Shown here: positions 4,473-64,000 of the stretch, in pieces
Layout: every line of letters starts with the position of its first letter
How positions within the stretch are numbered: position 1 is the first letter of the stretch
Assembly: GCA_043797265.1 (NCBI GenBank)
Contig: JAZDPV010000018.1
Location: 11,268 to 75,267, forward strand
Direction: 5' to 3'
Length of the DNA: 64,000 bases
Source of the DNA: an archaeon
Lineage (GTDB): Archaea; Nanobdellota; Nanobdellia; Pacearchaeales; GW2011-AR1
Program-made: the position numbers and the translations under genes
The notes under the pieces: generated by a model
Seen by the model: the letters and a program-made list of their open reading frames with translations, nothing else
The model's database searches: none
Told to the model about the DNA's origin: nothing

Positions 4473-4812
4473 TGCCGTCTTTAGTTAGGGCAGTGAAGCG
4501 GACGCCGACGGGAAGTGAGAGAAGCGCAGACTGGAGCGCCATGTGTTCTTTGCCGTTGCCGGATGCGATTGAGAGTGCGACTTCGAGGCCGGAAAATTTT
4601 CCCTTGAGTTTTTTTTCTAAATCTTTTTTTAGGTTGATTAGTGATTTATCTGGGTCGAATTCTATGAAATCGAATGGCCTGTCGTGGACTGTGAATTCTT
4701 TTGCGAAGGTTGGGCCGACTATTATTACTTTTTCCCATTCGCCTTTTTGCATTAGGCCAGAGACTTGTCCCCATGTTCCTTTGCCGGTTGAGAGGAGTGC
4801 TACTAGTTCCAT
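4459..4812 (-). CDS. Hypothetical protein (117 aa)
   Basis: ORF with a purine-rich coding strand. It overlaps the TYW1 3' end by 14 bp in convergent orientation. No family recognised. Confidence 0.4.
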   Translation of the reverse strand: MELVALLSTGKGTWGQVSGLMQKGEWEKVIIVGPTFAKEFTVHDRPFDFIEFDPDKSLINLKKDLEKKLKGKFSGLEVALSIASGNGKEHMALQSALLSLPVGVRFTALTKDGIIFL

Positions 4813-4939
4813 TTTAAAAAAATGATTGTGGATTATTTAAGGATTTATGTGATGGATGATAAGTTTTATAAAGTGAGTTTTTGATTGGGTTGTACTACGG
4901 GAGTAGGAGACTTCGGTCGCAAATTACTTCTGTTATATT

Positions 4940-5560
4940 ATGGAAATTAAGAAGGCACTTGAGGAACTTAGGAAAGGGAAGAAGCGGAAGTTTGTGCAGA
5001 CGCTGGATTTAATTGTGAATTTGAAGAATTTTGACGTGAGGAAAGAGGCGTTGAATAGTTTTGTTTCGGTGCCTCACGGGGGCGAGAAAAAGTTGGCTGG
5101 GTTTTTGACGAAGAGGTCGAAGCTGATTGATAGCATTACCGAGATGGATTTTGAGAAGTTTAAGGATTTGAAGGATATCAAGAAGTTGGCGAGGAGATAT
5201 GACGCGTTTATTGCGGTCGCGTCGATGATGGGAAAGATTGCGACGAAGTTTGGACGAGTTCTTGGACCGGTTGGGAAGATGCCGTCGCCGCAGGCCGGGA
5301 TTATTCCGAAAGAAGAGGATGCGATGATTAAGGTGATGATTGAGAGGATGAACAAGTCGATTAGAGTTAGAAATAAAGAGATGGCGATTAAGTTGGGGGT
5401 TGGGAAGGAGAGCATGAGTGATGACGAGTTGGCTGAGAATGTCGACGCTGCGATTCAGGGGTTGGAGAAGTTGCTGCCGAGGGGGAAAGATAATATTCGG
5501 GAAGTGCTGATTAAATGGACGATGTCGAAGCCGGTTAAAATTTTGGAGGCGGGAAAGTAA
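4940..5560 (+). CDS. rpl1: 50S ribosomal protein L1
   Basis: 206 aa, L1 family (VQTLDLIVNLK...VPHG...KIATKFGRVLGP). Confidence 0.9.
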   Translation: MEIKKALEELRKGKKRKFVQTLDLIVNLKNFDVRKEALNSFVSVPHGGEKKLAGFLTKRSKLIDSITEMDFEKFKDLKDIKKLARRYDAFIAVASMMGKIATKFGRVLGPVGKMPSPQAGIIPKEEDAMIKVMIERMNKSIRVRNKEMAIKLGVGKESMSDDELAENVDAAIQGLEKLLPRGKDNIREVLIKWTMSKPVKILEAGK

Positions 5561-12800: not shown

Positions 12801-13022
12801 TTTGTGTAGAGGGATTTTGGGTTTTTAAGAGTTGGGATAGTTAGATTTATATAGGGAGATTTGTGTTTGTTTCTGGTTCGATCCAAAACTTAAATGTTTG
12901 GGTCAGGAGAATTTTGCGATTGGTTGGTCGCGATAAGCGCTTGAGTGCTATCAAGTTGGTTATCAAGTAGTTGGGCTACTGGACACCGCTCGGTGTACCC
13001 TAAAATATAAAGGGCAAATAAA

Positions 13023-13967
13023 ATGACAGACAATAATGGAATACGAAGTGGAAGTTTGCAGTTTTACCCGAGGGTGCGGGCGAAAAAAGTTTTGCCGAAT
13101 GTGAATTGGAAGCCGGTAAGGAGAGACGGTGTCGGGTTCATGGGATTTATTGGCTACAAGGTTGGGATGGTTTCTGTTTGGGCGAAAGATAACACTGCTG
13201 ATTCGTTGACGAAGGGGAAGAAGATTGTTATTCCGGCGACGATTGTCGAGTGCCCGGTGATGAGAATTTATTCTGTCCGATTTTACAGGAATGGGAAAGT
13301 TTTGAAAGATGTCGTTGTCGCGAATGGGAAGGAGTTAAAGAGGAAGGTAAAGGTAGGGAAGAAAGTTGGCGAGATTAAAGACGATGTTGAGTTTGATGAT
13401 GTGAGGGTGATTTTGTCGTCGGGAGTTGGGATGACCGGGATTGGGAAGAAGAAGGTTGACTTGATTGAGGTCGGGATTTCTGGGAGCAAGGATGAGAAGT
13501 TGGCTTTTGTAAAAGAGAGAATTGGGAAAGATATTTTAATTGGGGATGTGTTTTCTGTGGGGTTGGTCGACGTGAGGGGTGTGACAAAGGGGTATGGGAC
13601 GATGGGTCCGATGAAACGGTTTGGGATTTCTTTGAAGGCGCACAAGTCCGAGAAGGGACGGAGGCGGCCAGGTTCTTTGGCACCGTGGCATCCGGCGAGA
13701 GTTACTTTCAGAACGCCGATGATGGGGCAGACGGGTTATCATAGCAGAATTAATTATAATAATTTAATTTTGAAAGTTGGGAAGATTGGCGAGAAAGATA
13801 TTAATTTGAAGGGTGGGTTTGAACATTATGGCGTCGTGAAAAATGATTATTTGATTTTGAGAGGTTCGATTCCGGGGCCGAAGAAGCGGGGGCTTGTGAT
13901 TAGTCAGGCGATTAGACCGACGAAAATTGTGGCGAAAAAAAAGTTTGAGGTGATGGAGTTGAGATGA
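13023..13967 (+). CDS. rpl3: 50S ribosomal protein L3
   Basis: FYPRVRAKK...GYKVGMV is the archaeal L3 family. It is the first gene of the cluster, and a TATA-like TTTATATA lies at about 12848. Confidence 0.95.
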   Translation: MTDNNGIRSGSLQFYPRVRAKKVLPNVNWKPVRRDGVGFMGFIGYKVGMVSVWAKDNTADSLTKGKKIVIPATIVECPVMRIYSVRFYRNGKVLKDVVVANGKELKRKVKVGKKVGEIKDDVEFDDVRVILSSGVGMTGIGKKKVDLIEVGISGSKDEKLAFVKERIGKDILIGDVFSVGLVDVRGVTKGYGTMGPMKRFGISLKAHKSEKGRRRPGSLAPWHPARVTFRTPMMGQTGYHSRINYNNLILKVGKIGEKDINLKGGFEHYGVVKNDYLILRGSIPGPKKRGLVISQAIRPTKIVAKKKFEVMELR

Positions 13968-14788
13968 TAGCGAAATTATTTGACAAGAGTGGCGAGGTGA
14001 AGGGCGATGTTGATTTGCCGAAATGTTTTGGGGCGAGAGTCAGGAAGGATATTTTATTGAAGGTTTTTGAGGCGCAGAAGGGAATTTATTCGCAGGCGTA
14101 TGGGGCGATGGAAGGGGCAGGGGCTCAATATTCAGCGTCGGGGATTTCGAGGAAGAAGAGGCACGCGTGGAAAGGAACTTATGGGAAAGGCATTTCAAGA
14201 ATTCCGAGGAAGATTATGTCGAGGCATGGAGCGTCGTTTAATTGGATTGGGGCGACTGTTTCAAATACTCGAGGTGGGCGAAGACCTCATGCTCCGAAAT
14301 CCGAGAAAAATCCATTCAAGAAAATTAACAAGAAAGAATTGACGATTGCGTTTAGTTCGGCGTTGAGTGGGAGCGGGAAAAACATAATTATTTTTGAAAA
14401 GAGTGTTTTGGATTTGAAGTCGAAGGAATTTTTTGGTTTGTTGAAGAAGATATTTGGGGACGCTAAGATTTTGAAGGTCAAGAGGATTCGGGCCGGGATT
14501 GGGAAAATGCGTGGGCGAAAGTATAAGTCGAATGCGGGTTTGCTTTTTATTATTGGTTCCGACGAGAAAATGGCAAGGAAAGGAATTGATGTCGTTGGCG
14601 TTGGTGATTTGAGGATAAAGGATTTGGTGCCGAATGGTGAGGTTGGGCGGATGATTTGTTATTCGGAAAATGCTGTGAAAGAAATTGGTTTGAAATTTGA
14701 GGGGAAGAAAAATGGCTCACGGATGAACACAGATAGACACGAATTAAAGAAAAAGGAAACTAAGAAAAAAGCTGGGGGGAAGAGATGA
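13964..14788 (+). CDS. rpl4: 50S ribosomal protein L4 (L1e), with C-terminal extension
   Basis: L4/L1e family. The last ~25 aa ([17 protein letters not shown]...) are encoded by the recurring 40-nt motif. Confidence 0.9.
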   Translation: MIAKLFDKSGEVKGDVDLPKCFGARVRKDILLKVFEAQKGIYSQAYGAMEGAGAQYSASGISRKKRHAWKGTYGKGISRIPRKIMSRHGASFNWIGATVSNTRGGRRPHAPKSEKNPFKKINKKELTIAFSSALSGSGKNIIIFEKSVLDLKSKEFFGLLKKIFGDAKILKVKRIRAGIGKMRGRKYKSNAGLLFIIGSDEKMARKGIDVVGVGDLRIKDLVPNGEVGRMICYSENAVKEIGLKFEGKKNGSRMNTDRHELKKKETKKKAGGKR

Positions 14789-15039
14789 AGACTATTATAT
14801 TGGAGAAGGTGAAGTCGACGGAAAAAATTGTGCGACAGATTGAGGCAGAGAACGTTTTGGTTTTTGTCGTCGATAGAGCGGTGGACAAGTTGGAGATTAA
14901 AAACGAGGTTGAGAAATTGTTTGGCGTGAAAGTGGTTAAGGTTCGGACGCACACTTTAAAGAACAAGAAGATTGCTTATGTTAAATTGAAGTCGGATTAT
15001 CCCGCGGTGGATGTTGCGACGAAGTTGGGGATGATGTGA
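14785..15039 (+). CDS. rpl23: 50S ribosomal protein L23
   Basis: 84 aa, L23 family. Confidence 0.9.
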   Translation: MKTIILEKVKSTEKIVRQIEAENVLVFVVDRAVDKLEIKNEVEKLFGVKVVKVRTHTLKNKKIAYVKLKSDYPAVDVATKLGMM

Positions 15040-15177
15040 TGAAATCGGATATTTCATCTGGTGATATTTTTGTTTCGCAAAAATGGAGATATGACGCTTT
15101 GCGTCGAGGAGATAATCGCTTCGCGATTGGTGATACGACTTCATCGTGGATGAAGATTGATGGAGGTTTGAATTGAG

Positions 15178-15876
15178 ATGGGCAAAAGGATAATTCAGCA
15201 GCGACGGGGAAAGGGCGGGCATGTTTACAAGACGAGAGAGGAGGCGGGGAAATTTAGGCCGGGATATTTGTCGAACATGGACGGGGAATTTGAGTGCGTG
15301 AAATTGTCGTCGTCGGTTGGGCATTCGGTTCCGATTGCGAAGTTTATTTCGAAAGAGGGGAAGGCGTTTGAGAATTTTGCTGTGAATTTGTTGTATGTCG
15401 GGCAGAAGATTGTTTTCGGGGGGAAGAACGCCGGGGATGTTGCGCGACTTGGTGATTTGAAAAGTGGTACTGAGATTTTTAATATTGAACACAACCCGAA
15501 GGACGGCGGGAAGTTTGTCAGGACTGGCGGGAATTTTGCGACGATTATGGTTAGAGAGGGAGATGTGGTGAAGGTTATGTTGCCGTCGAAGAATGTCAAG
15601 AAATTTAATGTTGATTGCCGGGCGACTGTCGGGCGGGCGGCTGGGGACGGGCGGTTGGATAAACCGATTTTGAAAGCGGGGAAGCAGTTTTATATAATGA
15701 AGATGAAATCAAAGTTGTGGCCAAGGACTTCTCCTGTTAAGATGAACGCGATTGACCATCCGTTCGGGTCTGGACGAGGGAAAAGAATTAAGAGCAAGAT
15801 TGCGAAGAGGAATGCGCCGCCAGGAAAGAAAGTTGGGATGATTAGACCGAGAAGGACGGGGAGGAAGAAGAGATGA
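15178..15876 (+). CDS. rpl2: 50S ribosomal protein L2
   Basis: MGKRIIQQRRGKGG...GNFATIM...HPFGSGRGK, L2 family. Confidence 0.95.
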   Translation: MGKRIIQQRRGKGGHVYKTREEAGKFRPGYLSNMDGEFECVKLSSSVGHSVPIAKFISKEGKAFENFAVNLLYVGQKIVFGGKNAGDVARLGDLKSGTEIFNIEHNPKDGGKFVRTGGNFATIMVREGDVVKVMLPSKNVKKFNVDCRATVGRAAGDGRLDKPILKAGKQFYIMKMKSKLWPRTSPVKMNAIDHPFGSGRGKRIKSKIAKRNAPPGKKVGMIRPRRTGRKKR

Positions 15877-15984
15877 AATCTTTGATTTCATCAGTTCGCT
15901 TCGCTGGAAGTTGGAAGTTCGCTTCGCTGGAAGTGGGGCTTCGCCCGACCTGGATTATATTTGGCTTGGAGGGATTTAGCTAAG

Positions 15985-16377
15985 ATGGCGGAATTAATTA
16001 AGAGGAGCAAGGATAGGTTTTATCGAGGGAAGAAAGTCGCGGATTTGAAGGATGTTGATATTCGGGAATTTGCGAAATTGACGAAGGCGAGAGCGAGACG
16101 GGCGTTGTTGAGAAATTATGATATTGTCGAGGCGCTTGTGAAAAGATGGGAGAGATATAATGTGAAGAAGAAACCGATAAGGACGCATAATCGGGAAATT
16201 GTAATTGTGCCGAAGATGATTGGATGGACTATTGGAGTTTATAATGGGAAGGAATTTTTGAAAGTTGTTATTAGTGAGGAGATGTTGGGGCATCGGCTGG
16301 GAGAGTTTGCGATGACGAGGAAGGTTGCTAAACATACAAGCATTGGAGCGAAGAAGGCGCCGAAGGAAAATGGATAA
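15985..16377 (+). CDS. rps19: 30S ribosomal protein S19
   Basis: KKKPIRTHNREIVIVPKMIGWTIGVYNGKEF...GHRLGEFAMTRK. An alternative upstream start lies at 15961. Confidence 0.9.
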   Translation: MAELIKRSKDRFYRGKKVADLKDVDIREFAKLTKARARRALLRNYDIVEALVKRWERYNVKKKPIRTHNREIVIVPKMIGWTIGVYNGKEFLKVVISEEMLGHRLGEFAMTRKVAKHTSIGAKKAPKENG

Positions 16378-16882
16378 AGAAAAAACTGGCGAGATTGAAA
16401 AAGAAGTTGTTTCCGAAGAGAAGAAAGAAGAGAAGAAAGATGTGAAGAAAGAAGTCGTGAGGGGGAAAGTTGTGAAGAAAAATATGGCATTCGCGAGAGG
16501 GGCTGGGTTGAATGTTTCGCCGAAGCAATGTATTTGCATTTGCAAAGTTATTCGGGGGAAGAATCCGGATGTTGCTGTTGCGCGGCTGCAGGATGTTATC
16601 GACGGGAAAGGGGTTATCCCGATGGCTGGGCTGGAAGTCGGGCATAGAAAAGGCAAGGGGCTGGCGGGCGGGAGATTTCCGAAAAATGCGTGCAATGCTG
16701 TTATAAATATTGTGAAGCAGGTTGCGGCGAATGCTGTCGTTGCCGGAATTGAGAATCCGGTGATTGCTGTTGCCAAGGCTGATAGGGCATCGGCTCCGTT
16801 CAGGCGTGGAGGGCGAAGAGCGAAGAGATGTAATCTTTATTTAGAAGTGAGAGATAAAACTAAATTGGCGGGGAAGAAATAG
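16371..16882 (+). CDS. rpl22: 50S ribosomal protein L22 with K/E-rich N-terminal extension
   Basis: The L22 core is MAFARGAGLNVSPKQ...AVARLQDV. It is preceded by about 40 aa of EKKEEKKDVKKE. Confidence 0.9.
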
Positions 16883-17580
16883 TGGAAGAAAAAGCGTTTG
16901 TTGGAGTGCGAAGGGATGAGTATAATATTCGGGAATTTGTAAAGCGGATGTTTGGGATGGGGAAAGTTTCGCGAGTGAGGATTGAGTATACTCCGGTTGG
17001 CGAAAAGGTTGTCGTGGCGACGCATAGACCTGGTTGGATTATCGGGAAGGGCGGGGAAAAAATTAATGAGTTGACCGAAATTTTGAAGAAGCGGTTTAAG
17101 ATGGAGAACCCGCATGTTGATATCGAGGAGATTATGAAGCCCGAGTTTGATGCTCAACTGGTTGCCGACGACATTGCTTTGACGCTCGAGAGATTTGGGG
17201 CGCAAAAATATAAGGCGTCGAGTTATCGGGCTTTGGATAGAATTAAGAAAGCGGGGGCTTGGGGGGCTGAGTTGAGATTGTCAGGGAAACTGCCGAGCGA
17301 CAGGGCGCGGAGTTGGAGATTCGCGTTTGGTTATTTGAAGAAAACTGGCGACGCTGCGAGTGTTGTTGATAGGGCTGAATCTGTTGCTGTTACAAAGCAG
17401 GGCGTTGTCGGGATTAAGGTTGCGATTTTGGCTCCGGGGGTTAAGGTTTATGACCAGATTGTAATTGACGAGGATTTTATGAATCAGATTAAGAAAAACG
17501 CGACATTTGAGGAAGTTGAGGAGACGGTTAAGAAAAAGAAAAGAAGTGTGAAGAAAAAAATTAAGGAGGGTAGGAAATGA
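16882..17580 (+). CDS. rps3: 30S ribosomal protein S3
   Basis: KH-domain tract GWIIGKGGEKINELTEILKKRF, with S3 family order. Confidence 0.9.
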   Translation: MEEKAFVGVRRDEYNIREFVKRMFGMGKVSRVRIEYTPVGEKVVVATHRPGWIIGKGGEKINELTEILKKRFKMENPHVDIEEIMKPEFDAQLVADDIALTLERFGAQKYKASSYRALDRIKKAGAWGAELRLSGKLPSDRARSWRFAFGYLKKTGDAASVVDRAESVAVTKQGVVGIKVAILAPGVKVYDQIVIDEDFMNQIKKNATFEEVEETVKKKKRSVKKKIKEGRK

Positions 17581-17771
17581 TGGCGGAGAAGAAAATGACG
17601 GTTAAGGAAATAGATAAGAAGATTATGGACTTGAAGATTGAGTTGCTGCGGAATCCGACGAAAAAGGGAAAGATTAAAAGGGAAATTGCGCGGCTTCTTA
17701 CCATGGGGAACCGAGAGAACAGAGAATTAAAAATGAAGACTTTAACTAAACTGGAGGATGCGAAGAAGTAA
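17577..17771 (+). CDS. rpl29: 50S ribosomal protein L29
   Basis: 64 aa. MTVKEIDKKIMDLKIELL is L29-like. Confidence 0.85.
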   Translation: MMAEKKMTVKEIDKKIMDLKIELLRNPTKKGKIKREIARLLTMGNRENRELKMKTLTKLEDAKK

Positions 17772-18070
17772 TGGATATTTGTCCGAAGTGTGGACTGCCT
17801 TTGGCGGCGTGTGTCTGCGGCGAGATTGCCAAGACGCAACAACAAATTGTTGTGAAGACCGAAAAAAGGCGTTTCGGAAAAGTTAATACGATTATAACCG
17901 GATTTGATAATGGCGTCGACGTTAAGGATCTCGCGAAGCGGCTCAAAATGAAGCGGGCTTGCGGTGGCACGACGAAAAACAATGTTATCGAATTACAGGG
18001 AAATCACAAAGGTCACATTAAACCGATTTTGGTTGAAATAGGATTTAGTGAAAATCAGATTGACGATTAG
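17771..18070 (+). CDS. Translation initiation factor SUI1 (aSUI1/eIF1 homolog)
   Basis: N-terminal CPKCGLP..CVCG zinc ribbon plus the SUI1 fold tract KRRFGKVNTIITGFDNGVDVKDLAKRLKMKRACGGT. Confidence 0.85.
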   Translation: MDICPKCGLPLAACVCGEIAKTQQQIVVKTEKRRFGKVNTIITGFDNGVDVKDLAKRLKMKRACGGTTKNNVIELQGNHKGHIKPILVEIGFSENQIDD

Positions 18071-18099
18071 CGCGTTTGCGTGAGGTGATAGAGAATAGA

Positions 18100-18447
18100 A
18101 TGGCAGAGAAAAAGGTAAGGAAGAAAATAGAAATAAAGGTCGAATGTAAAGATAGACTTTGTCCTCGGCATGGGGATAGGAAGTTGAAATTGAGGGGGCG
18201 GGTTTTTGAGGGGGTTGTGATTAGAAAATTTCCGAGGAGAGTCACGATTGAGTTTGAGAGGATGTTGAAGTTGCCGAAGTACGAGAGATATGAGAAAAGG
18301 AAAACCAAGATTCACGCGAGATTGCCGGATTGCATGAAGGATGAAGTTGCCGTTGGTGATTTGATTTTGATTGCGGAGACGCGACCAATTTCGAAGATGA
18401 TTCATTTTGTTGTTTCGAAAGTTGTTCGGAAGGGGGCGGGGGAATGA
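18100..18447 (+). CDS. rps17: 30S ribosomal protein S17
   Basis: CKDRLCPRHGD...GVVIRKFPRRVTIEFERM, S17 family. Confidence 0.9.
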   Translation: MAEKKVRKKIEIKVECKDRLCPRHGDRKLKLRGRVFEGVVIRKFPRRVTIEFERMLKLPKYERYEKRKTKIHARLPDCMKDEVAVGDLILIAETRPISKMIHFVVSKVVRKGAGE

Positions 18448-18507
18448 GATATGCTTTGATAGAAAAAGGGCTTCGCCAAATTTTATTTAATGTTTTGGAG
18501 GTAGAAA

Positions 18508-18714
18508 ATGAAGGCGATTAGTGCGCATCATGAGTATAAGGTGGGACTTAATTCTGGTAATTGGTATGGGGTTAGAGAGAGCGGGTTGCCGAGTGATAGA
18601 GAAGTTATTGGGGATTTAGAGGATGATAATAGTGTTTTTGCCTGTGGTCTTTTTGGCATTGGTACATCTAAAATAAAAAAACCTAAAGCGAGGAATGAAA
18701 ATGAAGGCGATTAG
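18508..18714 (+). CDS. Small ORF (68 aa) whose RBS and first 6 codons duplicate the L14 start
   Basis: gaaaatgaaggcgattagtg occurs at 18502 and again at 18694. The ORF body has no recognisable family. Confidence 0.3.
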   Translation: MKAISAHHEYKVGLNSGNWYGVRESGLPSDREVIGDLEDDNSVFACGLFGIGTSKIKKPKARNENEGD

Positions 18715-19102
18715 TGGGCGGGTGACGAGGGGGTTGAATATTGGGAGTTTGGTTGATGCGTGTGATAATAGCGGGGCGCGGATTGTAAAAATTGTGGCGG
18801 TGAAACACGGGAAGACGTCGAAGGGACGGCAGGGTTATGCGAAGGTTGCGGATTGGGTGAAGGTTTCGGTGAGAAAGGGAGACCCGAAGATGAAGGGCGA
18901 GGTTTTTGATGCGGTGGTTGTTCGGCAGAGAAAATCGTGGCGAAGAAACACGGGCGAGAGAGTTTGCTTTTCGGATAATGCGGTTGCGTTGTTCAAGGAC
19001 GAGAAGGGAAATCCGAAGGGGACGCAGATTAAGGGTGCGGTCGCGAGGGAAGTTCAGGAAAGATGGAAAGAAGTCGCTAAAATTGCGGGGAGTGTTTATT
19101 GA
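18701..19102 (+). CDS. rpl14: 50S ribosomal protein L14
   Basis: MKAISGRVTRGLNIGSLVDACDNSGARIVKIV, L14 family. Confidence 0.9.
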   Translation: MKAISGRVTRGLNIGSLVDACDNSGARIVKIVAVKHGKTSKGRQGYAKVADWVKVSVRKGDPKMKGEVFDAVVVRQRKSWRRNTGERVCFSDNAVALFKDEKGNPKGTQIKGAVAREVQERWKEVAKIAGSVY

Positions 19103-19228
19103 TGGGAAAATTAAAAATTTTCCCATGGGGATACGAGAAACTTTGTTTCTCGAGGGGATATGGCTTCGCCATGGAGATAGACGCTTCGCGTCGGGTGATT
19201 GCGCTTCGCGCGGGTGAATGGAGGAAAG

Positions 19229-19750
19229 ATGAAGTCGAAATTTAATAAATCGTGGAATGCGAGTGTGAAGCCAAGGAAACAGAGGAAGTTTTTGGTGAAT
19301 GCGCCGAATCACATTAGGCGAAAGTTGATGGGAGCGACGCTGGATAAGAGATTGAGGGCGAAGCATGGGGTGAGGAGTATTGAAGTTCGGAAGGGCGATG
19401 AGGTCAAGGTTATGAGAGGGAAGTTTGCGAAGAAGCAAGGGAAAGTTGGGGGGGTTGATGTTAAGAATTGCCGGATTCAGATTGATGGATTACAAAGAGA
19501 GAAAAAGGGTGGAGAGAAAGTTATGACGTGGTTCCATCCGTCGAGTGTGAAGATTGTTGTTTTGGATGATAGTGATAAAAGACGGTTTAAACGGAAAGGT
19601 TTGGAATCTGGGAAAGTAAAATTAAGAGAGGGGAAAAATGGCTCACGGATGAACACGGATGAGCACGGATTAAAGAATAAGGAAAATAGAAAAGTTGATA
19701 GAATCGTTAAGGGGAAAATAGATAAAATGGAAAAGGAGATTAAGAAATAA
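19229..19750 (+). CDS. rpl24: 50S ribosomal protein L24 (KOW) with C-terminal extension
   Basis: The KOW motif is [20 protein letters not shown]. The C-terminal [19 protein letters not shown] is encoded by the recurring motif. Confidence 0.85.
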
Positions 19751-20409
19751 TGGCGCATATAAAGAAAACTGAAATGCCGACGCTGTGGCCGATTTCGAGA
19801 AGAGGGAAGAGAAAGAGATTTATCGCTGTTCCTGCTCACGCGACTTCGAAGGGAATTAGTTTGTTGTTTTTACTTAGAGATGTTTTGAGAGTTGTTGAGA
19901 CGAGGAAAGAAGCGAGATATATGACGCTGAATGGGATGGTCAAAGTTAATAATGTTGTTCGGAAGGATGAGAATTTTCCGGTTCAGGTGTTCGATGTGTT
20001 AGGGTTAGAGAAGGGTGGATTGAATTATAGATTAGAGATTGTTAATGGAAAGTTTAGGTTGAATGAAATATCCGAGAAAGAGGCTGGGGAAAAAATTGTG
20101 AAGATTTCCGGGAAAAAGGTTTTGGGCAAGGATAAGATTCAGATGAATTTGGATGATGGGCAGAATGTTTTGAGCGGGGAGAAATTTTCCGTCGGTGATT
20201 CGGTTTTGTTTAATACGAAAGAGAAAAAAGTTGTGAAAATTTTGCCGTTAAAGAAGGGGGCAAAAGTTGAAATTGTTTTGGGAAAGCACGCGGGGGACAA
20301 GGGCGAGTTGGTTGGGTTTGAAGATTTGGCCCGCGGGCGGAATTATGAAATTAAATTGGGGGACAAGATTGTGAGATTGCCTTACAAAACTATCTTGGTG
20401 ATTGGATGA
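19750..20409 (+). CDS. rps4e: 30S ribosomal protein S4e
   Basis: [25 protein letters not shown]4e family. Confidence 0.9.
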   Translation: MAHIKKTEMPTLWPISRRGKRKRFIAVPAHATSKGISLLFLLRDVLRVVETRKEARYMTLNGMVKVNNVVRKDENFPVQVFDVLGLEKGGLNYRLEIVNGKFRLNEISEKEAGEKIVKISGKKVLGKDKIQMNLDDGQNVLSGEKFSVGDSVLFNTKEKKVVKILPLKKGAKVEIVLGKHAGDKGELVGFEDLARGRNYEIKLGDKIVRLPYKTILVIG

Positions 20410-20425
20410 TGGGGGTAGACGATAG

Positions 20426-20968
20426 ATGGTAGATGGTAATAATGTGATGAGAGAAATAAAACTGGAGAAGGTTATTTTGAATATCGGGGGCGTCGAGGAT
20501 AAATTGAATAGAGGGGCGATTTTGCTGGAGAAAATTTCGGGGAAGAAAGTGGTGAAGGTCAAGGCGACAAAGAGGATTCCGAGCTGGAATGTTCGGCCGG
20601 GACTTGAGGTTGGTGTCAAGGTTACGTTGAGGGGCGACGACGCGCTGGAGATGGTGAAGAAGTTGTTGCCGGCGATTGATAATATTTTGAAGGAGAAGCA
20701 GATTCAGGATAATTGTTTTTCGTTCGGGATTCATGAGTATATCGAGATTCCGGGAGCTGAGTATATTCGGGAAGTTGGGATTATGGGGTTCGAGGTGACG
20801 GTTGTTTTTAGCCGGGCGGGAAAGAGTGTCGAGCAGAAAAAAATTAAGCGAGGCAAGATGCGAAGGTCGGTTGTGACGAGGAAGGAAATTGAGGATTATG
20901 TTGTAGATAAATTTGGGACGGAAATTTTGCGGAAGGAAAAGAAGTTGGAGGGGGAAGATGAGGAATAG
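20426..20968 (+). CDS. rpl5: 50S ribosomal protein L5
   Basis: MREIKLEKVILNIG...FSFGIHEYIEIPG, L5 family. Confidence 0.9.
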   Translation: MVDGNNVMREIKLEKVILNIGGVEDKLNRGAILLEKISGKKVVKVKATKRIPSWNVRPGLEVGVKVTLRGDDALEMVKKLLPAIDNILKEKQIQDNCFSFGIHEYIEIPGAEYIREVGIMGFEVTVVFSRAGKSVEQKKIKRGKMRRSVVTRKEIEDYVVDKFGTEILRKEKKLEGEDEE

Positions 20969-21024
20969 AAATAATGGCTCACTAATGAACACGAATGAAC
21001 ACAGATTTAAATTAAATAGGGAAG

Positions 21025-21267
21025 TTGGGGGAGGATATGACGTCGAGTGATTGGAGGAAGATAACGAAGCAGTTGAGGGGGAAGCCGGCGGTGTTGAAAA
21101 AGTTTTTGAAACATAATAAACCGAAGGCGAGGAAATTTGGCGTCGCTGTTAATAAATGCGAGGTTTGCGGGCGGACCGGGGCTCATATATCAAGTTATAA
21201 TCTAAATTTGTGCCGACATTGTTTCAGGGAATTGGCGGTTGAATTGGGGTTTAAGAAATACTCATGA
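21025..21267 (+). CDS. rps14: 30S ribosomal protein S14 (zinc type, S29e-like)
   Basis: CEVCGRTGAHISSYNLNLCRHCFRELA is a C4 zinc ribbon. Confidence 0.85.
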   Translation: MGEDMTSSDWRKITKQLRGKPAVLKKFLKHNKPKARKFGVAVNKCEVCGRTGAHISSYNLNLCRHCFRELAVELGFKKYS

Positions 21268-21313
21268 GAAGGAAAATAGATAATAGAAAATTGGAAATAG
21301 GAGGAAATTTCAG

Positions 21314-21685
21314 ATGAGTCATGATGTTGTTGCGGACGGGTTGAATCAGATAATGAACGCGAAAGCGGTGGAGAAGGGTGAGGTTGTGATTAGACGGGGT
21401 TCGAAAGTTTTGGTTAAATTATTTAAGATGATGAAAGAGTTGGGGCATATTGATTATAAGATTGAGGACGGGGATATTATTGTCAGGATTTTGAAGTTAA
21501 ATGAATGCCGGGCGGTGAAGCCGAGATATTTTGTCGGGGTTGATGGGATTGACAGGTACCTTAGGAGATTTTTGCCGTCGAGAAATTTCGGAACTTTAGT
21601 TATTTCTACGAACAAGGGATTGATAACGCACAAGGAAGCTTTGAAATTAAATATTGGGGGAAGCGTTGTTGCTTATTTTTACTGA
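21314..21685 (+). CDS. rps8: 30S ribosomal protein S8
   Basis: DVVADGLNQIMNAKAVEKGEVVI...GLITHKEALKLNIGGSVVAYFY. Confidence 0.9.
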   Translation: MSHDVVADGLNQIMNAKAVEKGEVVIRRGSKVLVKLFKMMKELGHIDYKIEDGDIIVRILKLNECRAVKPRYFVGVDGIDRYLRRFLPSRNFGTLVISTNKGLITHKEALKLNIGGSVVAYFY

Positions 21686-22266
21686 TGAATAAAGATTTGA
21701 TGAGAGAGATTGAAATTCCGACGGGGGTTGAAGTTTGTGTTAACGGGAATGAGGTTGTTGTGAGAGGGAGCGGAAAGGAGTTGAGAAAAAGTTTTGATAA
21801 AGGGAAGGTTGTGATTGAAGTCAAGGACGGGAAAATTGTTTTGAGTGTTTCGGGGGCGAGTCGTCGGGAATCGAAGATGATTGGAACGATTTGGGCGCAT
21901 TTGAAAAATATGATTAAGGGAGTTGGCGAAAATTTTGTTTATGAGCTGGAGATTTGCAATATTCATTTTCCGATGAACGTTTCCGTTGTTGAAACAACGG
22001 AAAAGGGTACAGGCATCAGGAATCAGAATTCAGGCAAGGTTGTGATTAAAAGTTTTTTGGGGAGAGTGAAGGAGAGAGTTGCGCGGATTATGCCGGGGGT
22101 GAGTGTTGAAGTGAAAGGGAATAAGATTGTCGTTAGTTCAGGAGACATTGAGGCGGCAGGACAGACCGCGGCGAATTTAGAGAAAGCGACGAGGCTGGTT
22201 GGTCGGGATAGGAGAGTTTTTCAGGATGGAATTTACATAACTAAAAAACCTTATAGGAATATTTAA
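21685..22266 (+). CDS. rpl6: 50S ribosomal protein L6
   Basis: Two-domain L6 pattern (IEIPTGVEVCVNGNEVVVRG...). Confidence 0.9.
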   Translation: MNKDLMREIEIPTGVEVCVNGNEVVVRGSGKELRKSFDKGKVVIEVKDGKIVLSVSGASRRESKMIGTIWAHLKNMIKGVGENFVYELEICNIHFPMNVSVVETTEKGTGIRNQNSGKVVIKSFLGRVKERVARIMPGVSVEVKGNKIVVSSGDIEAAGQTAANLEKATRLVGRDRRVFQDGIYITKKPYRNI

Positions 22267-22267
22267 G

Positions 22268-22618
22268 ATGGAAAGAAAGAAGCCGAAATTTTTGAGGAAG
22301 GACTGGCACAAGGAAATTAAACTCGGGAGGACGGTGAAGAAATTGCGGAAGTGGCGGGCGGCGAAGGGGAGACATAACAAGATTAGATTGAGTAGGAGAG
22401 GACAGTCGCGGAGGCCGAAGATTGGATGGTCATTAGGGGGCAGTAGGAAGGGAGTTGGTGGTAAGTATGTTTTGAATTTGAAGGATTTATCGTCGGTAAA
22501 AAAAGGTGAGGGAATTTTGATTGGGGCCGTTGGGGGGAAGAAGAGAAAGGAAATTGTTGCGAAGGCGAATGATATGGCTGTTAAGATTTTGAATAAATAT
22601 AAGGTGGTGAAAAAATGA
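22268..22618 (+). CDS. rpl32e: 50S ribosomal protein L32e
   Basis: KFLRKDWHKEIKLGRTVKKLRKWRAAKGRHNKIR. Confidence 0.9.
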   Translation: MERKKPKFLRKDWHKEIKLGRTVKKLRKWRAAKGRHNKIRLSRRGQSRRPKIGWSLGGSRKGVGGKYVLNLKDLSSVKKGEGILIGAVGGKKRKEIVAKANDMAVKILNKYKVVKK

Positions 22619-23019
22619 ATTTGGCTAAGCGAAAAGAGTTGGCGGCGAAAGTTTTTGGGGTCGGGAAAGGCCGGATTATTTTTGTGAAAGATAATTTACC
22701 TGAAATTAAAGAGGCGATTACGCGGATGGATATTATTGATTTGCATAAATCGGGAGCAATTAAAATTAGAGAGATTAGGGGACGGAAGAAAATTGTGAGA
22801 AGGCGACATAGAAGAAGAGTTGGAAAAGTTAAAGGGAAGGTTAGTGATAAGAAGGCGGAGTATGTGATAATCACGAGGAAGTTGCGGAAGTTTGTGAGAG
22901 GATTGGTGAGGGCGGGAAAAATTAAGAGAGAGAGAAGCGGGGAAATTCGGAAAGAGATTCGAGCGCGGAAGTTCAAGAGCAAAAGACATCTTAAAGAAAT
23001 TTTGGAGGAAGGGGAATGA
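22615..23019 (+). CDS. rpl19e: 50S ribosomal protein L19e
   Basis: LAKRKELAAKVFGVGKGRI...RGRKKIVRRRHRRR. Confidence 0.9.
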   Translation: MNLAKRKELAAKVFGVGKGRIIFVKDNLPEIKEAITRMDIIDLHKSGAIKIREIRGRKKIVRRRHRRRVGKVKGKVSDKKAEYVIITRKLRKFVRGLVRAGKIKRERSGEIRKEIRARKFKSKRHLKEILEEGE

Positions 23020-23089
23020 AAGTTTTGGCGGGGCTTTGCCCGAGGTTGTTTGGCGGCGGAAGGAATTTAAATGATGGTTTGAGGGGATT

Positions 23090-23590
23090 GTGATGGCAGG
23101 ATTAAGGACGATGAAGCGAAGGAGAAAGGAAGGGCGGACGGATTACAAGTTGAGACTGGGGCTGTTGAAGAGCGGGTTGCCGAGGATTGTGATTAGAAGG
23201 ACGAACAAATATTTTATCGTGCAGGCGGTCGAGAGTGTTGAGGCACAGGACGGGGTTGTCGCGACTATTAGTTCGAAGGAGTTGTTGAAATATGATTGGG
23301 ATGAGAAGAAGGGCGGGAGTTTGAAATCTATTCCGGCTGGATACCTCACGGGTTTTTTATTCGCCAAGAAACTGAAAAATAAAAACAAGTATATTGTTGA
23401 TTTAGGGATGGCCCGGACCGAGAAAGGATGCAGGGTGTTTGCCGTCGTCAAGGGGTTGATTGATGGTGGCGTGAACATTGATGTTGATGAAAAAGTTTTT
23501 CCGTCTGGGGAAAGATTGGCGGGTGAGCATTTGGAAGACGGGATTAAAGAAATGATTGTAAAAGTTCGGGAGAAATTGAGGAATGGCTAA
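23090..23590 (+). CDS. rpl18: 50S ribosomal protein L18 (L5e)
   Basis: RRRKEGRTDYKLRLGLLKSGLPRIVIRRTNKYFIVQ. Confidence 0.9.
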   Translation: MMAGLRTMKRRRKEGRTDYKLRLGLLKSGLPRIVIRRTNKYFIVQAVESVEAQDGVVATISSKELLKYDWDEKKGGSLKSIPAGYLTGFLFAKKLKNKNKYIVDLGMARTEKGCRVFAVVKGLIDGGVNIDVDEKVFPSGERLAGEHLEDGIKEMIVKVREKLRNG

Positions 23591-24419
23591 GAAAAAAGTT
23601 GCGGGGGATGCAGACGTCAAGGAGCAGTTGGAGGAGATGGTTGATGTGGTGGACGCCAAGGAGAAAGTGGAAGAGGAAAAGGTGTCGAAGGAATTTGACG
23701 AGAAGGCGAAGGTCGAGGAGAGGAGTGAATTTAAACGGGAGACGAAAGAGGAAAGATTTGCGAGAGAAGATTACGAGAAGTTGGAGAGATGGATACCGAG
23801 GACTGAGTTGGGGCGCAAGGTCAGGGCGGGGAAAATCAAGGATATTGACGAGATTTTGAAGGATGGGAAAAAAATTATGGAGTCGGAGATTGTTGATTTG
23901 CTGGTTCGTGGTTTGAAGGTGGACACTTTGTTTATCGGGCAGGCGAAGGGAAAGTTTGGCGGAGGGAAGAGACGGGCGTTCAGGCAGACGCAGAAGAAAA
24001 CGAAGGAAGGAAATGTTTTGACTTTTGGAGTGATGGCTGTTGTTGGCGATGAGCATGGGCACGTTGGGCTTGGTTATGGGCGAGCGTCTGAGACATTGCC
24101 GGCGAAGGAAAAAGCGATTAGGAAAGCGAAATTGAGTATTGTGAAAATTCCGAGGGGGTGTGCGAGTTATAATTGTTCGTGTGATGGGGAACATAGTATC
24201 CCCTTGGCCGTCGAGGGGAAATGCTCTTCAGTGGTTATTAAGTTGATGCCAGCGCCTCAGGGAACGGGGTTGGTTGTTGGGGACGAGATGAAAAAGATTT
24301 TGAGGATGGTCGGGATAAAGGATGTCTATAGCCAGACCGAGGGAAAAATCAGGACGACGTTTAATGCGGCGAAAGCGTTGATGGTTGCGTTGAATAAATT
24401 GAATGAGGTGAGAATATGA
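23583..24419 (+). CDS. rps5: 30S ribosomal protein S5 with ~85 aa acidic/lysine-rich N-terminal extension
   Basis: S5 core (GKFGGGKRRAF...VGLGYGRASE...GTGLVVGDEMKKIL). It is preceded by an EEKVSKEFDEKAKVEERSEF... low-complexity region. Confidence 0.9.
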   Translation: MAKKKVAGDADVKEQLEEMVDVVDAKEKVEEEKVSKEFDEKAKVEERSEFKRETKEERFAREDYEKLERWIPRTELGRKVRAGKIKDIDEILKDGKKIMESEIVDLLVRGLKVDTLFIGQAKGKFGGGKRRAFRQTQKKTKEGNVLTFGVMAVVGDEHGHVGLGYGRASETLPAKEKAIRKAKLSIVKIPRGCASYNCSCDGEHSIPLAVEGKCSSVVIKLMPAPQGTGLVVGDEMKKILRMVGIKDVYSQTEGKIRTTFNAAKALMVALNKLNEVRI

Positions 24420-24489
24420 AAATCGTAGATTTTCATGGTGATAATCGTTTTGCGATTGGATGTATGACTTTGTCATGGGTGGTTGTGAG

Positions 24490-24831
24490 ATGATATTGGT
24501 CGTGAGGATTGCGGGGCAGGCGAGGAAGAAGGCGAAGGATAGTGAGACCTTGAGGCGGTTGAGGTTGGGAAAGAAGTTTAGTTGTATTCTTGTCGACGAG
24601 AAAGATGATGTGAGGATAGGGATGGTGCGAGCGGTGGGATACATGGTTGCTTACGGGAAAGTTGAGGACGATTTTGTGAAAGAGTTGAAGAAGATGCGGA
24701 AAGACAAGGATGGGGTTTATTTTTTGCATCCGCCTCGAGGTGGGTTTAAGAAGAGTTCGAAAGTTGCGACGCCGAAGGGAATCCTTGGGAAAAATGAAGA
24801 TATCACTAAATTAGTGGAGAGGATGTTATGA
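24490..24831 (+). CDS. rpl30: 50S ribosomal protein L30
   Basis: MILVVRIAGQARKKAKDSETLRRLRLGKKFSCILV. An upstream ATG at 24460 is an alternative start. Confidence 0.85.
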   Translation: MILVVRIAGQARKKAKDSETLRRLRLGKKFSCILVDEKDDVRIGMVRAVGYMVAYGKVEDDFVKELKKMRKDKDGVYFLHPPRGGFKKSSKVATPKGILGKNEDITKLVERML

Positions 24832-24928
24832 AAAAATCGGGGATTTTTTCGGGCGTTAGGTTGCTTCGCTTGTGGGTGTTGGGTCACTTCGCTTGTGGGA
24901 ACTTGAGTAACATTGCGGGAGTATTAAG

Positions 24929-25378
24929 ATGAGAGTTCATAAGAGGAAGAAGTCATCGAGAATTCGTGGGGGAAAAACTTGCGGGTGGGGATTTAGGCAG
25001 AAGCACAAGGGGCATGGGAATAAAGGTGGGACTGGAATGGCTGGGAGCGGGAAGAGGGCGGACCATAAAAAACAATCTGCGTTGATGTCTGATGAGAAAG
25101 GGCAGTATTTTGGGAAGCAGGGGGCGACGTCGCGAGGAACAAAAAAGAAAAAATATGAAAAAATTAATTTGTGCGATATTCGGGCTAACTTTGATGGGAA
25201 TAAGATTGATTTGAGTAAGCATAAGATTCTTGGGAAGGGCGAAGGGTTTAAGGCGGAAATTTTGGCGAAGAGCGCGAGTGTGAGCGCGATTGAAAAGATG
25301 GAGAAGGCGGGTGGTCGAATTCTTATTGTGAATTCGAAGAAATCAGGTGTCAGAAATCAGGTGTCAGAGGAAAATTAA
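24929..25378 (+). CDS. rpl15: 50S ribosomal protein L15
   Basis: RIRGGKTCGWGFRQKHKGHGNKGGTGMAGSGKR. Confidence 0.9.
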   Translation: MRVHKRKKSSRIRGGKTCGWGFRQKHKGHGNKGGTGMAGSGKRADHKKQSALMSDEKGQYFGKQGATSRGTKKKKYEKINLCDIRANFDGNKIDLSKHKILGKGEGFKAEILAKSASVSAIEKMEKAGGRILIVNSKKSGVRNQVSEEN

Positions 25379-25425
25379 AGTTAATTCTACAAAACTTTAT
25401 AAAAGAATTTTATGTTCATTAAATC

Positions 25426-26802
25426 ATGGGCTTAAAATGGTTATTGCATAATTTGCCTGAGGTTCGGGCGCCGACGGAGAAGAAGGTTAGTTTTAATGTT
25501 AAATTGAAATGGACACTGGTTATTTTGGTTGGGTTTTTTGTTCTTTGCAATATTCCGTTGTTTGGCATTACAGAGAGTGCGTTGTCGCGGTTTGAGTATT
25601 TGGCGATTTTGTTGGGAACGGATTTTGGTTCGATTATTTCGCTGGGTATTGGGCCTATCGTCATGGCTTCGATTATTTTGCAATTGTTGAATGGAGCGGG
25701 GATTTTGAATATTGATACGAATACCGACGAGGGCAAGAAGTTTTTTCAGGGGGTGCAGAAATTGCTGGTTTTTGCGTTTGTGATTTTTGAGTCGATGGTT
25801 TATGTTTTGATGAGAGGGATTGCGGCCGAACCGGGTTTTGCGGGGCTTGTTATTTTTCAATTGATTATCGGGGGGCTCTTGATTGTTTTTATGGACGAGG
25901 TTGTGCAGAAGTGGGGCTTTGGTTCGGGGGTTAGTTTGTTTATTGCGGCCGGGATTGGGTGGAGATTGTTTGCTCAGTTGTTCCAGTTTATCGGGCCGAC
26001 TGGGGCGTTTGAGGCGACTGGTAAAGTTTTAGCGATTGTTGCCGCGATTATTTCTGGAGGGGCTGGGACGGGGACTGAGGTTTTGAGAAATTTATTTCCG
26101 ATTATTGCTACTGCTGTTTTGTTTTTGGCGGTTGTGTTTGCGCAGAGTTTGAAGGTCGAGATTCCGCTGGCGTTTGACAGGATTCGCGGGCATTCGGTAA
26201 AGTGGCCGCTGCAATTTTTTTATGCGGGGGTTATTCCGGTGATTTTGGTTTCGGCTTTGGTTGCTAATTTGCAGTTGTTTGCGTCGCTGTTGCAGAATTG
26301 GCTGGGGCACGCGACTTTCCTCGGTGGATTTAGTTCGGGCGGGCAGGCAATTTCGGGTTTGTCTTTTTGGGTTCACTCTACTCCTATTTTGGAGACAATT
26401 ATCACCGGGAGTTTTAGATGGATTTATGCCGGGCAGGCGGTGGTTCATATTTTGTTTTATACTTTGTTTTCGATTGTGTTTTCTTTCTTTTGGGTCGGGA
26501 CTTCAGGGATGGACGCGAGGAGTCAGGCGAACAAGATTGTTCATTCTGGGATGAGCATGCCGGGGTTTAGGAAGGACGAGAGAGTTTTGGAATCGATTTT
26601 GAAAAGGTATGTGACGCCGTTGACAGTGATGGGTGGTGCGGCGATTGGGCTTTTGGCATCGGTGGCGAACTTGCTTGGGGCGTTAGTTGGCGGGACGGCG
26701 ATTCTTTTGGCGATTATGATTTTGTATCAGTTGTATCAGAACATCGCGCAGCAGCATGCGGTCGACATGAATCCGGCGCTCAAGGGTTTCTTTGGTGCTT
26801 GA
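25426..26802 (+). CDS. secY: Preprotein translocase subunit SecY
   Basis: 458 aa with 10 TM helices, at the SecY position after L15. Confidence 0.95.
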   Translation: MGLKWLLHNLPEVRAPTEKKVSFNVKLKWTLVILVGFFVLCNIPLFGITESALSRFEYLAILLGTDFGSIISLGIGPIVMASIILQLLNGAGILNIDTNTDEGKKFFQGVQKLLVFAFVIFESMVYVLMRGIAAEPGFAGLVIFQLIIGGLLIVFMDEVVQKWGFGSGVSLFIAAGIGWRLFAQLFQFIGPTGAFEATGKVLAIVAAIISGGAGTGTEVLRNLFPIIATAVLFLAVVFAQSLKVEIPLAFDRIRGHSVKWPLQFFYAGVIPVILVSALVANLQLFASLLQNWLGHATFLGGFSSGGQAISGLSFWVHSTPILETIITGSFRWIYAGQAVVHILFYTLFSIVFSFFWVGTSGMDARSQANKIVHSGMSMPGFRKDERVLESILKRYVTPLTVMGGAAIGLLASVANLLGALVGGTAILLAIMILYQLYQNIAQQHAVDMNPALKGFFGA

Positions 26803-60997: not shown

Positions 60998-61103
60998 GCG
61001 TGGATAGTATAATGGTTAGTATAACTGGTTTCCAAATACTTAGTTCCAAAAGAATTAGATATGAAAATACCAGTTGATCGGGGTTCGAATCCCCGTCCGC
61101 GCA
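60998..61103 (+). tRNA. tRNA-Trp (CCA) with ~32-nt intron 3' of the anticodon
   Basis: Acceptor GCGTGGA/TCCGCGC + A. Anticodon stem CTGGT/ACCAG with loop TTCCAAA, interrupted by tacttagttccaaaagaattagatatgaaaat. T-arm CGGGG-TTCGAAT-CCCCG. Confidence 0.7.
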
Positions 61104-61251: not shown

Positions 61252-61334
61252 GAGGAGATGCCGGAGTGGTCAAACGGGCCAGACTCAAGATCTGGTGGCT
61301 TATGCCTACGGGGGTTCGAATCCTCCTCTCCTCA
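61252..61334 (+). tRNA. tRNA-Leu (CAA)
   Basis: Acceptor GAGGAGA/TCTCCTC + A. Anticodon stem CCAGA/TCTGG with loop CTCAAGA. Long variable arm. T-arm GGGGG-TTCGAAT-CCTCC. Confidence 0.8.
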
Positions 61335-63835: not shown

Positions 63836-64000
63836 AATCTTTGATTTTATCCTCAAGGGTATTGGGGCGCTTTGCTTGTTGGTATTGGGGCGCTTTGCTT
63901 GTTGGTGATTTAAGTAACTTGAGGATACTGAAAAATGGTGATTAGAAAAGAGAGTGTGAAGTATTCGTTGAATAATATTTGGAAGAGTAAGGCGAGGAGT

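Follow-up and report, generated by a model that had tools for sequence, protein, structure and literature searches.

Three decamer arrays in a ribosomal-protein gene cluster

We analysed a 64-kb window, part of the 91-kb contig JAZDPV010000018.1 (assembly GCA_043797265.1, positions 11,268 to 75,267) of an archaeon of the Pacearchaeales, and a short repeat within it that we define here as the CACRGAT decamer array. An array of this family has at least two CACRGAT heptamers at an exact spacing of 10 nt and a 5' flank (A/T)TARGC(Y). Three copies lie in a cluster with archaeal ribosomal-protein gene order (L3-L4-L23-L2-S19-L22-S3-L29-SUI1-S17-L14-L24-S4e-L5-S14-S8-L6...). An initial annotation of the window had pointed out three motif copies and had read two of them in frame as tails of L4 and L24; re-reading the sequences confirmed the copies, their positions and both translations. 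The genes and arrays concerned are as follows.

13964-14788, + strand: L4 gene; the last ~30 codons are the inserted element and a regenerated ...GGKR* end
14698-14767, + strand: array copy 1, within the L4 3' end, translated (nhmmer E=1e-9); heptamers CACGGAT at 14718, CACAGAT at 14728 and CACGAAT at 14738
19229-19750, + strand: L24 gene; the element lies within its non-conserved C-terminal tail
19625-19693, + strand: array copy 2, within the L24 3' end, translated, the most intact copy; heptamers CACGGAT three times, at 19644, 19654 and 19664
20426-20968, + strand: L5 gene; stop codon 1 nt upstream of copy 3
20968-21013, + strand: array copy 3, in the L5-S14 spacer, untranslated, the most decayed copy; heptamers CACTAAT at 20980, CACGAAT at 20990 and CACAGAT at 21000, then TTTAAATTAAATA
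21037-21267, + strand: S14 gene, downstream of copy 3; start ATGACGTCGAGTGATTGG, the same in relatives

We searched the window with the 23-mer GGCTCACGGATGAACACGGATGA, allowing up to three mismatches. The results showed matches at 14714, 19640 and 20976, all on the + strand, with 0.00 matches expected from 100 shuffles. Repeat finding placed the three copies in one 41-nt family with 83-100% identity, and copies 1 and 2 were 85% identical across 61 nt. Tandem Repeats Finder reported a period of 10 and the unit CACGGATGAA for the array. The copies had been described as two or three half-sites; this can be refined, as each consists of three heptamers CAC[G/A/T][G/A]AT at exact 10-nt spacing. The 5' flank of the window copies is purine/A-rich and ends in A(A/T)TGGCT, and the 3' flank is A-rich; in copy 1 the 5' flank, GAGGGGAAGAAAAATGGCT, is Shine-Dalgarno-like and A-rich, and the 3' flank is again A-rich. 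The heptamer CACGGAT was found nowhere in the 64 kb outside the arrays. Relative to the intact copy 2, the differences in copies 1 and 3 are chiefly G-to-A changes, and copy 3 is, as had been reported, both intergenic and the most degenerate, sitting in a spacer of 68 nt. The L4 stop codon overlaps the L23 ATG (ATGA), and the L24 stop codon overlaps the S4e ATG (TAATG). The family definition takes in the three window copies, at least 14 copies in relatives, and the Anaerolineae arms and phage arrays described below.

Base composition was then tabulated. The coding strand is very C-poor, with 11% C and 34% G in the ribosomal-protein cluster and 12% C across the window, and the GC skew of the + strand is +0.3 to +0.57 over window positions 1-64000, strongest at 13000-26000. 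Four-fold degenerate sites hold 53% G, 10% C and 12% A. Because the coding strand is so extremely C-poor, a motif that contains C stands out.

Insertion of the arrays in one DPANN clade

The locus was compared with a set consisting of L24 homologues, 80 L24-centred metagenome loci and the contigs of selected homologues, in which genes were mapped by tblastn. L-numbers (L024, L116 and so on) are labels of the relatives' loci compared, L196 is GCA_964468545.1 and L028 is GCA_018901375.1. The results showed that in most of ~50 relatives the L4 stop codon overlaps the L23 ATG (GGAGARAGRTTYAAATGA), that most have an L5-S14 gap of 25-40 nt, and that the L24 tail of most is K/E-rich and lacks the motif. 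Among the matches listed, the array peptide was present in 5 of 120 L4 homologues and ~9 of 120 L24 homologues, and these relatives are labelled Nanoarchaeota or Pacearchaeota in the source records. Arrays were found only in the window, L030, L115, L116/L196, L117/L024, L118, L119, L027-029, L197 and L198, and about ten array-bearing genomes underlie the comparisons given here. In a neighbour-joining tree of the L24 core, S4e and L5, which took in only those array-bearing genomes with enough sequence, the window, L116/L196, L117/L024, L118 and L027 fell into one clade, together with one array-free member, L121. Since the junctions of most relatives are compact or motif-free and the arrays are restricted to a single clade, the motif is a lineage-specific insertion. 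The comparison of L4 and L24 C-termini that the initial annotation had proposed gave the same answer, as the extension is lineage-specific and most relatives lack the motif.

A search of ~802 kb of DPANN loci with an nhmmer profile found the element on the sense (+) strand only, with 0 antisense matches. The sites occupied were L4|L23, L24|S4e, L5|S14 and, in L116/L196, S14|S8, plus one degenerate copy (L024:16591) 10 nt past the stop codon of a YidC/EMC3-like gene.

Constraint on nucleotides and the translated tails

The copies within the last codons of L4 and L24 are read as a tail through the only open sense frame of the element, that is, the only sense frame without TGA. Both tails are in-frame repeats within an open reading frame (ORF), and the repeat is absent from most orthologues. 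In different relatives, every extended L4 tail finishes with ...GGKK*, which corresponds to a rebuilt Shine-Dalgarno sequence and ATGA overlap with L23.

In principle, selection could act on the protein, with the peptide as the conserved unit and a functional extension of the L4 and L24 C-termini, and TD(E/K)HG-like tail peptides do recur in L24 and L4 of several relatives. We find this hardly credible. The same DNA stands untranslated at L5|S14, at S14|S8 and after the YidC-like gene, and the untranslated copies retain the architecture of the translated ones. The array period of 10 nt is not a multiple of 3 and would be meaningless for a peptide. There is no synonymous variation, as the His codon of the array is always CAC and the Gly codon always GGA, although four-fold sites are only 10% C and 12% A. 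In addition, most relatives have no such peptide tail, and the tail frame is simply the only one that the element leaves open. The constraint looks to act on nucleotides, not on the peptide.

We then compared the units of individual arrays. Variants were common to the units within an array, while arrays differed from one another: CACAGATAAA three times; CGCAGATGAA twice plus CGCAGAT; CACGAAT three times; and, in further arrays with matching units, CACGGACGAG twice plus CACGGAT, CATGGAC twice and CGCGAAT twice. Although the composition strongly depletes C, position C1 of the heptamer never varied and C3 hardly ever did. Identity to the window at four-fold sites was 0.74 for L030, 0.60 for L117, 0.59 for L116, 0.49 for L118 and 0.45 for L027, compared with 0.37 expected from composition alone. 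The heptamer variants comprised 16 transitions and 1 transversion; the transition/transversion ratio at four-fold sites was 2.9 in the closest genome pair and fell to 0.5 with saturation. We had considered the transition-only variation as evidence of RNA pairing and set this aside, as 16:1 is only marginal against a ratio of 2.9.

The A/T box is not conserved, and a promoter role is unlikely

The initial annotation had also proposed that the copies are internal promoter cassettes resembling a transcription factor B recognition element (BRE) and TATA box. Spelled out, the A/T box would serve as TATA and the array as BRE or upstream activating site, with separate transcripts beginning ahead of L23, S4e and S14 and dividing the long operon. 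Every copy does lie upstream of a gene start. In copy 3, TTTAAATTAAATA stands ~32 nt before the S14 ATG and resembles TTTAAAATA and TTTAAAAA, the boxes that precede two of the window's tRNA genes by 27-28 nt.

The remaining results did not support this proposal, and we judge it very improbable. Allowing one mismatch, the window holds 106 occurrences of ATTAAAGAA, the box of copies 1 and 2, mostly inside genes. The distance from box to next ATG is inconsistent (~41, 80 and 32 nt in the window), and the distance from array to next ATG in relatives ranges from ~20 to >100 nt, with only 19 nt at S14|S8 of L116. The boxes of orthologous copies are not conserved (TTGAAAAAC, TTAGAAAAA, CTAGCGAAAG, TTTTTTAGGAGG). 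Copies 1 and 2 lie inside ORFs whose stop codon overlaps the next start, a mark of translational coupling on one transcript, and the bacterial and phage arrays of the same sequence cannot be archaeal promoters. Only copy 3 resembles the TATA boxes of tRNA genes, and across the arrays no conserved TATA box at a fixed distance was found; even for copy 3, a promoter role is unlikely.

The same sequence in Anaerolineae, phages and a plasmid

We searched 185,579 species genomes for exact matches to the 23-mer ATGGCTCACGGATGAACACRGAT. The results showed 23 loci, all in Anaerolineae, at least 15 of them in one metagenome-assembled genome (MAG), W31_78; by our own estimate, chance would give ~0.03 loci. 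The 23-mer of window copy 2 equals the Anaerolineae repeat arm letter for letter. In Anaerolineae it forms the left arm of an inverted repeat, GGCTCACGGATGAACACAGAT...ATCTGTGTTCATCCGTGAGC, which lies within a non-coding repeat of ~150-165 nt resembling miniature inverted-repeat transposable elements (MITEs) or repetitive extragenic palindromic (REP) sequences, and truncated variants exist. The archaeal and Anaerolineae versions align over ~40 nt, with about 38/41 nt identical.

The 17-mer core was found at 84 loci of uncultivated viral contigs with a GC content of 40-67%. Some of these are hairpin pairs and many are solo arrays preceded by TTAACC or TTAGCC. Loosely defined arrays numbered 132 in 712 kb of viral contigs, compared with 1 after shuffling. 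We examined 20 phage arrays in their gene context, with gene calls that are our own approximations. A sense ORF of at least 135 aa ended no more than 30 nt upstream in 17 of the 20, and the distance from array to next start varied from -2 to 59 nt. The genes before phage arrays are unrelated to one another and include two large terminases, a head-tail adaptor, a DnaB helicase and a head-morphogenesis protein. Other short repeats (TTAACCGCAGAGAACGCAAAGAACGCAG, CTCTGTGGGCTCTGCGGCTAA, GGATTCCCGCCTKCGCGGGAATGACA, GCTTCGCTTCGCTCGCAATGACA) adjoin the decamer arrays of viral contigs L108, L083, L056, L069, L092 and L093, which points to a broader range of elements of similar construction there.

No match to the element was found in the cultured phage genomes of INPHARED. 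Among the PLSDB plasmids there was a single match, on a plasmid of Gloeothece PCC 7424, antisense to both neighbouring genes. No paper of the literature searched contained the exact sequence, its reverse complement or any of six derived peptides, and a search of the whole window against Rfam 15 gave no family at the gathering threshold for the arrays. As far as these two sources show, the sequence family appears to be undescribed.

Structure of the archaeal copies

Local RNA folding of six arrays gave no structure better than shuffled sequences (z -1.4 to +1.2), and no reverse-complement partner of the array was found in the window at up to three mismatches. Because of these two results, the archaeal copies are unstructured solo arms. 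At an E-value threshold, Rfam returned for the cluster only a weak Gut-1 match in the L23-L2 spacer, and for five hairpin-bearing loci only miRNA-precursor models far below threshold.

Several other leads fit the array poorly or are tentative at best, a DnaA box among them. The CsrA consensus RUACARGGAUGU, set beside ACACGGAUGA, was a poor lead, as archaea are not known to have CsrA. The array has no CUGA box, as a C/D-box kink-turn would have, and no YC dimers, as a Rho utilization (rut) site would have. No complementarity to conserved 16S segments was recognised, with no rRNA of this clade among the sequences considered.

Proposed origin: a small repeat tolerated at operon junctions

The other proposal of the initial annotation, a small repeat that spread and was tolerated as C-terminal extensions, was supported by the compact junctions of relatives, the restriction to one subclade and the MITE-like arm in Anaerolineae. 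Our preferred explanation, to which we would give an even chance, is that the copies are lineage-specific solo-arm insertions of a widespread small non-autonomous repeat, tolerated at operon junctions. For its entry, its spread and its neutrality we infer the following course. A repeat from a pool shared with bacteria and phages would have entered the ancestor of a small DPANN subclade and would then have spread by copying among the junctions and gene 3' ends of the ribosomal-protein operon, which is long and co-directional. As the L4 and L24 ends show, the original overlap of stop and start with the next gene was kept, or rebuilt downstream of the insertion. Slippage or conversion within an array may keep its units alike, and copies would decay slowly, mainly by G-to-A changes. 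They would be co-transcribed with the operon and not act as internal promoters, and any effect on expression would be secondary, polar and in cis. The operon junctions of this clade are unusually permissive, as they also hold GCTTCGC mini-hairpins and unannotated small ORFs without a Pfam match.

Several results weigh against this explanation. The first group concerns insertion and dispersal. No clear target-site duplication was found: the copies are flanked by 8-9-nt purine direct repeats (14701/14776, 19629/19710 and 20950/21077), which hint at insertion but are not significant against a per-site background of 9.5% for 8-mers and 2.3% for 9-mers. No transposase, RAYT or other, lies beside the arrays, and the window holds no inverted partner, as noted above. 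The other ~58 kb of the window contain 0 copies, and all DPANN copies are sense; a selfish repeat transposing at random would be expected in other intergenic regions and on both strands, so that the sense-only clustering speaks against such a repeat.

The second group concerns conservation. In a hand count of a small sample, divergence from the consensus was ~12% at heptamers and ~24% at the 3-nt spacers. Four-fold sites differ at 40-55%, with saturation at ~63%, so conservation of the arrays exceeds that of neutral sites. The number of heptamers is three in nearly every array, a constancy that random slippage does not predict. This conservation and the fixed three units favour selection, or an ongoing renewal of the arrays, and they are the main evidence against neutrality.

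The third group concerns the phages. In high-GC phage contigs, greedy longest-ORF calling is misled by shadow ORFs and was replaced by a test of the coding phase of third-position G+C (GC3). By this test, 37 solo phage arrays were co-oriented with the upstream gene and 5 opposed. A stop codon lay 1-2 nt before the array in 11 of the 20 phage cases, an anchoring that fits function better than junk.

Weighing a possible cis-acting function

These results bear on another explanation, in which the arrays are functional, orientation-dependent cis-elements of polycistronic operons. A sequence-specific factor would recognise the three heptamers, either aligned along one side of the DNA helix or in unstructured mRNA, just past the end of a cistron, and its binding would influence elongation, post-termination events or how the next cistron is translated. 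In the DPANN clade, such sites would have been acquired, or domesticated, within the ribosomal-protein operon; they can be likened to mycobacteriophage stoperators, an RNA operator or a roadblock. The regulator binding that the initial annotation had offered beside the promoter would be a possible case of this explanation. The exact helical period of 10 nt alongside freely varying 3-nt spacers is consistent with this explanation, as are the three units of nearly every array. Heptamers about twice as conserved as spacers, and far more so than four-fold sites, at near-saturated divergence, point the same way, as do the C's that the heptamer keeps against the C-depleting composition. In placement, too, the DPANN copies stand in one orientation at gene ends as stoperator-like sites do, and the phage solo arrays are co-oriented and stop-anchored behind unrelated genes.

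Other results count against a function, which we consider possible but rather unlikely. No candidate binding protein for the array emerged. Arrays within one genome differ (CACAGAT and CGCGAAT in L027; CACGGAT and CACGGAC in L024), so any binding factor must tolerate variation at several positions. As a counterweight to selection, window copies 1 and 3 are visibly decayed, and the sister genome L121, which lost or never had arrays, manages without them, as do most relatives. Two copies stand in translated sequence, where ribosomes would displace an RNA-bound factor, and the cyanobacterial plasmid copy is antisense to both neighbours. The transition-only pattern, being only marginally off the ratio of the closest genome pair, adds little.

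A broader form of this explanation seems to us doubtful and somewhat less probable still: that the array is an undescribed class of polar cis-element in bacteria and archaea, a three-site platform kept by selection and bound by a factor. Its sense-oriented copies would directly follow stop codons in tailed phages and the DPANN ribosomal-protein operon, and in Anaerolineae too, there as inverted pairs. If so, the element would control RNA polymerase or the ribosome at cistron boundaries, and the DPANN-Anaerolineae match of ~38/41 nt would record a recent cross-domain exchange of DNA, or a shared mobile element or virus.

Comparison with known systems

The element was compared with four known kinds of sequence. 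It resembles REP sequences, bacterial interspersed mosaic elements (BIMEs) and MITEs in being short, non-coding and multi-copy and in lying at gene ends or junctions. The likeness holds for the Anaerolineae homologues, with their ~150-165 nt, inverted arms, truncated variants and at least 15 copies in one MAG, and for the hairpin pairs of phage and bacterial contigs. In contrast, each window copy is a solo arm that lacks an inverted partner and for which no hairpin is predicted, and there are only 3 in 64 kb, all sense and within 6.3 kb of one operon. Because they lack palindromy and a high dispersed copy number, we did not file them as REPs or MITEs.

Rickettsia palindromic elements (RPEs) offer a parallel in behaviour. 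Rickettsia felis has 728 RPEs, 85 of them within ORFs (PMC1166351). Like the array, RPEs are small repeats that invade coding and non-coding DNA and are tolerated as extra peptide segments. They differ in being longer, palindromic, genome-wide and restricted to Rickettsia, whereas here a tandem array with a 10-nt unit is confined to 3' ends and is common to bacteria and archaea.

Mycobacteriophage stoperators are asymmetric, oriented with transcription and mostly not associated with promoters (PMC6550527). Each is a single 13-bp site with a known cognate repressor; a phage carries 20-30 of them, and they occur in Cluster A only (PMC6550527, PMC9283540). The arrays are likewise asymmetric scattered sites, mostly in one orientation to transcription, and phage arrays also lie in short intergenic junctions. 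Unlike stoperators, the present element is a triple heptamer array, is found in very different genomes and has no known binding protein.

The autoregulatory sites of ribosomal-protein operons (the L4/S10 leader, S8/spc, L1) are structured rRNA mimics and widely conserved. As cis-elements in ribosomal-protein operons, the arrays could similarly couple neighbouring cistrons. However, they are unstructured and clade-specific, and they also occur outside ribosomal-protein operons, in phages and Anaerolineae.

If the arrays are only tolerated, they would be a clear archaeal case of selfish short repeats absorbed, in the manner of RPEs, into essential ribosomal-protein genes, and would mark a flow of DNA that links DPANN archaea with Anaerolineae or phages. 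If they are functional, they would be a very widespread and so far undescribed intercistronic signal, and would explain thousands of spurious "hypothetical proteins" from translated repeats.

Other features of the window and its relatives

The cluster and its surroundings contained further features. A SUI1/aIF1-family gene lies at 17771-18070, between L29 and S17, and occupies the same place in relatives. Three spacers are expanded to 84-138 nt, namely L23-L2 (15040-15177), L2-S19 (15877-15960) and L14-L24 (19103-19228). They are made of short G+C hairpins with a UUCG-type loop (...GCTTCGC...), and further sites lie at 18470 and 24863. GCTTCGC occurs 14 times in the window, mostly in the expanded spacers, against 4.4 expected, and GCTTCGC-type tandem inserts were seen in the L4 tails of relatives (ASLPDRFAPR..., ASLKNGSALR...). 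The hairpin GATGAAATC-nnn-GATTTCATC recurs directly after L23 (15037-15059), after L2 (15871-15893) and at 24821-24850, and a second recurring motif, GGAGATAATCGCTTCGCGATTGGTGAT, was found at 15108, 19173 and 24437.

The S17-L14 spacer measures 247 nt (18448-18694), and a 68-aa ORF at this place (18508-18714) has no Pfam match. Relatives have other, unrelated small ORFs at S17-L14, L3-L4, L4-L23, L5-S14 and S14-S8, again with no Pfam match. At the L4 3' end of L027 (2906-2975), where the window has copy 1, there is a different tandem repeat, AACGCTTCGCTTAAG, in ~3.5 copies with a period of 16-17 nt. In L196, the S14-S8 spacer contains GTTGGAA four times and a CAGAGAGCCTTCGGCTCCC hairpin (16470-16500 and 16500-16560), and its decamer array follows downstream.

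Two mobile-element genes were noted upstream of L3 in relatives. L196, the closest syntenic relative, has a reverse-transcriptase gene (RVT_1, E=1e-21) on the - strand at 4413-5453, inserted 2.3 kb before L3 at a place where the window lacks one, and in L024 an rve-type integrase/insertion sequence (197-1036) immediately precedes L3. The ends of both are free of arrays.

Elsewhere in the window, tandem repeats were detected at 1947-2065 (55 nt x 2.2, 98% matches) and 63858-63906 (23 nt x 2.1, 100%). Rfam matched a tRNA of 106 nt at 60998-61103 (55.7 bits) that ARAGORN did not call and that probably contains an intron; it heads a tRNA-tRNA-tRNA-5S cluster whose further members lie at 61252, 61351 and 61460.

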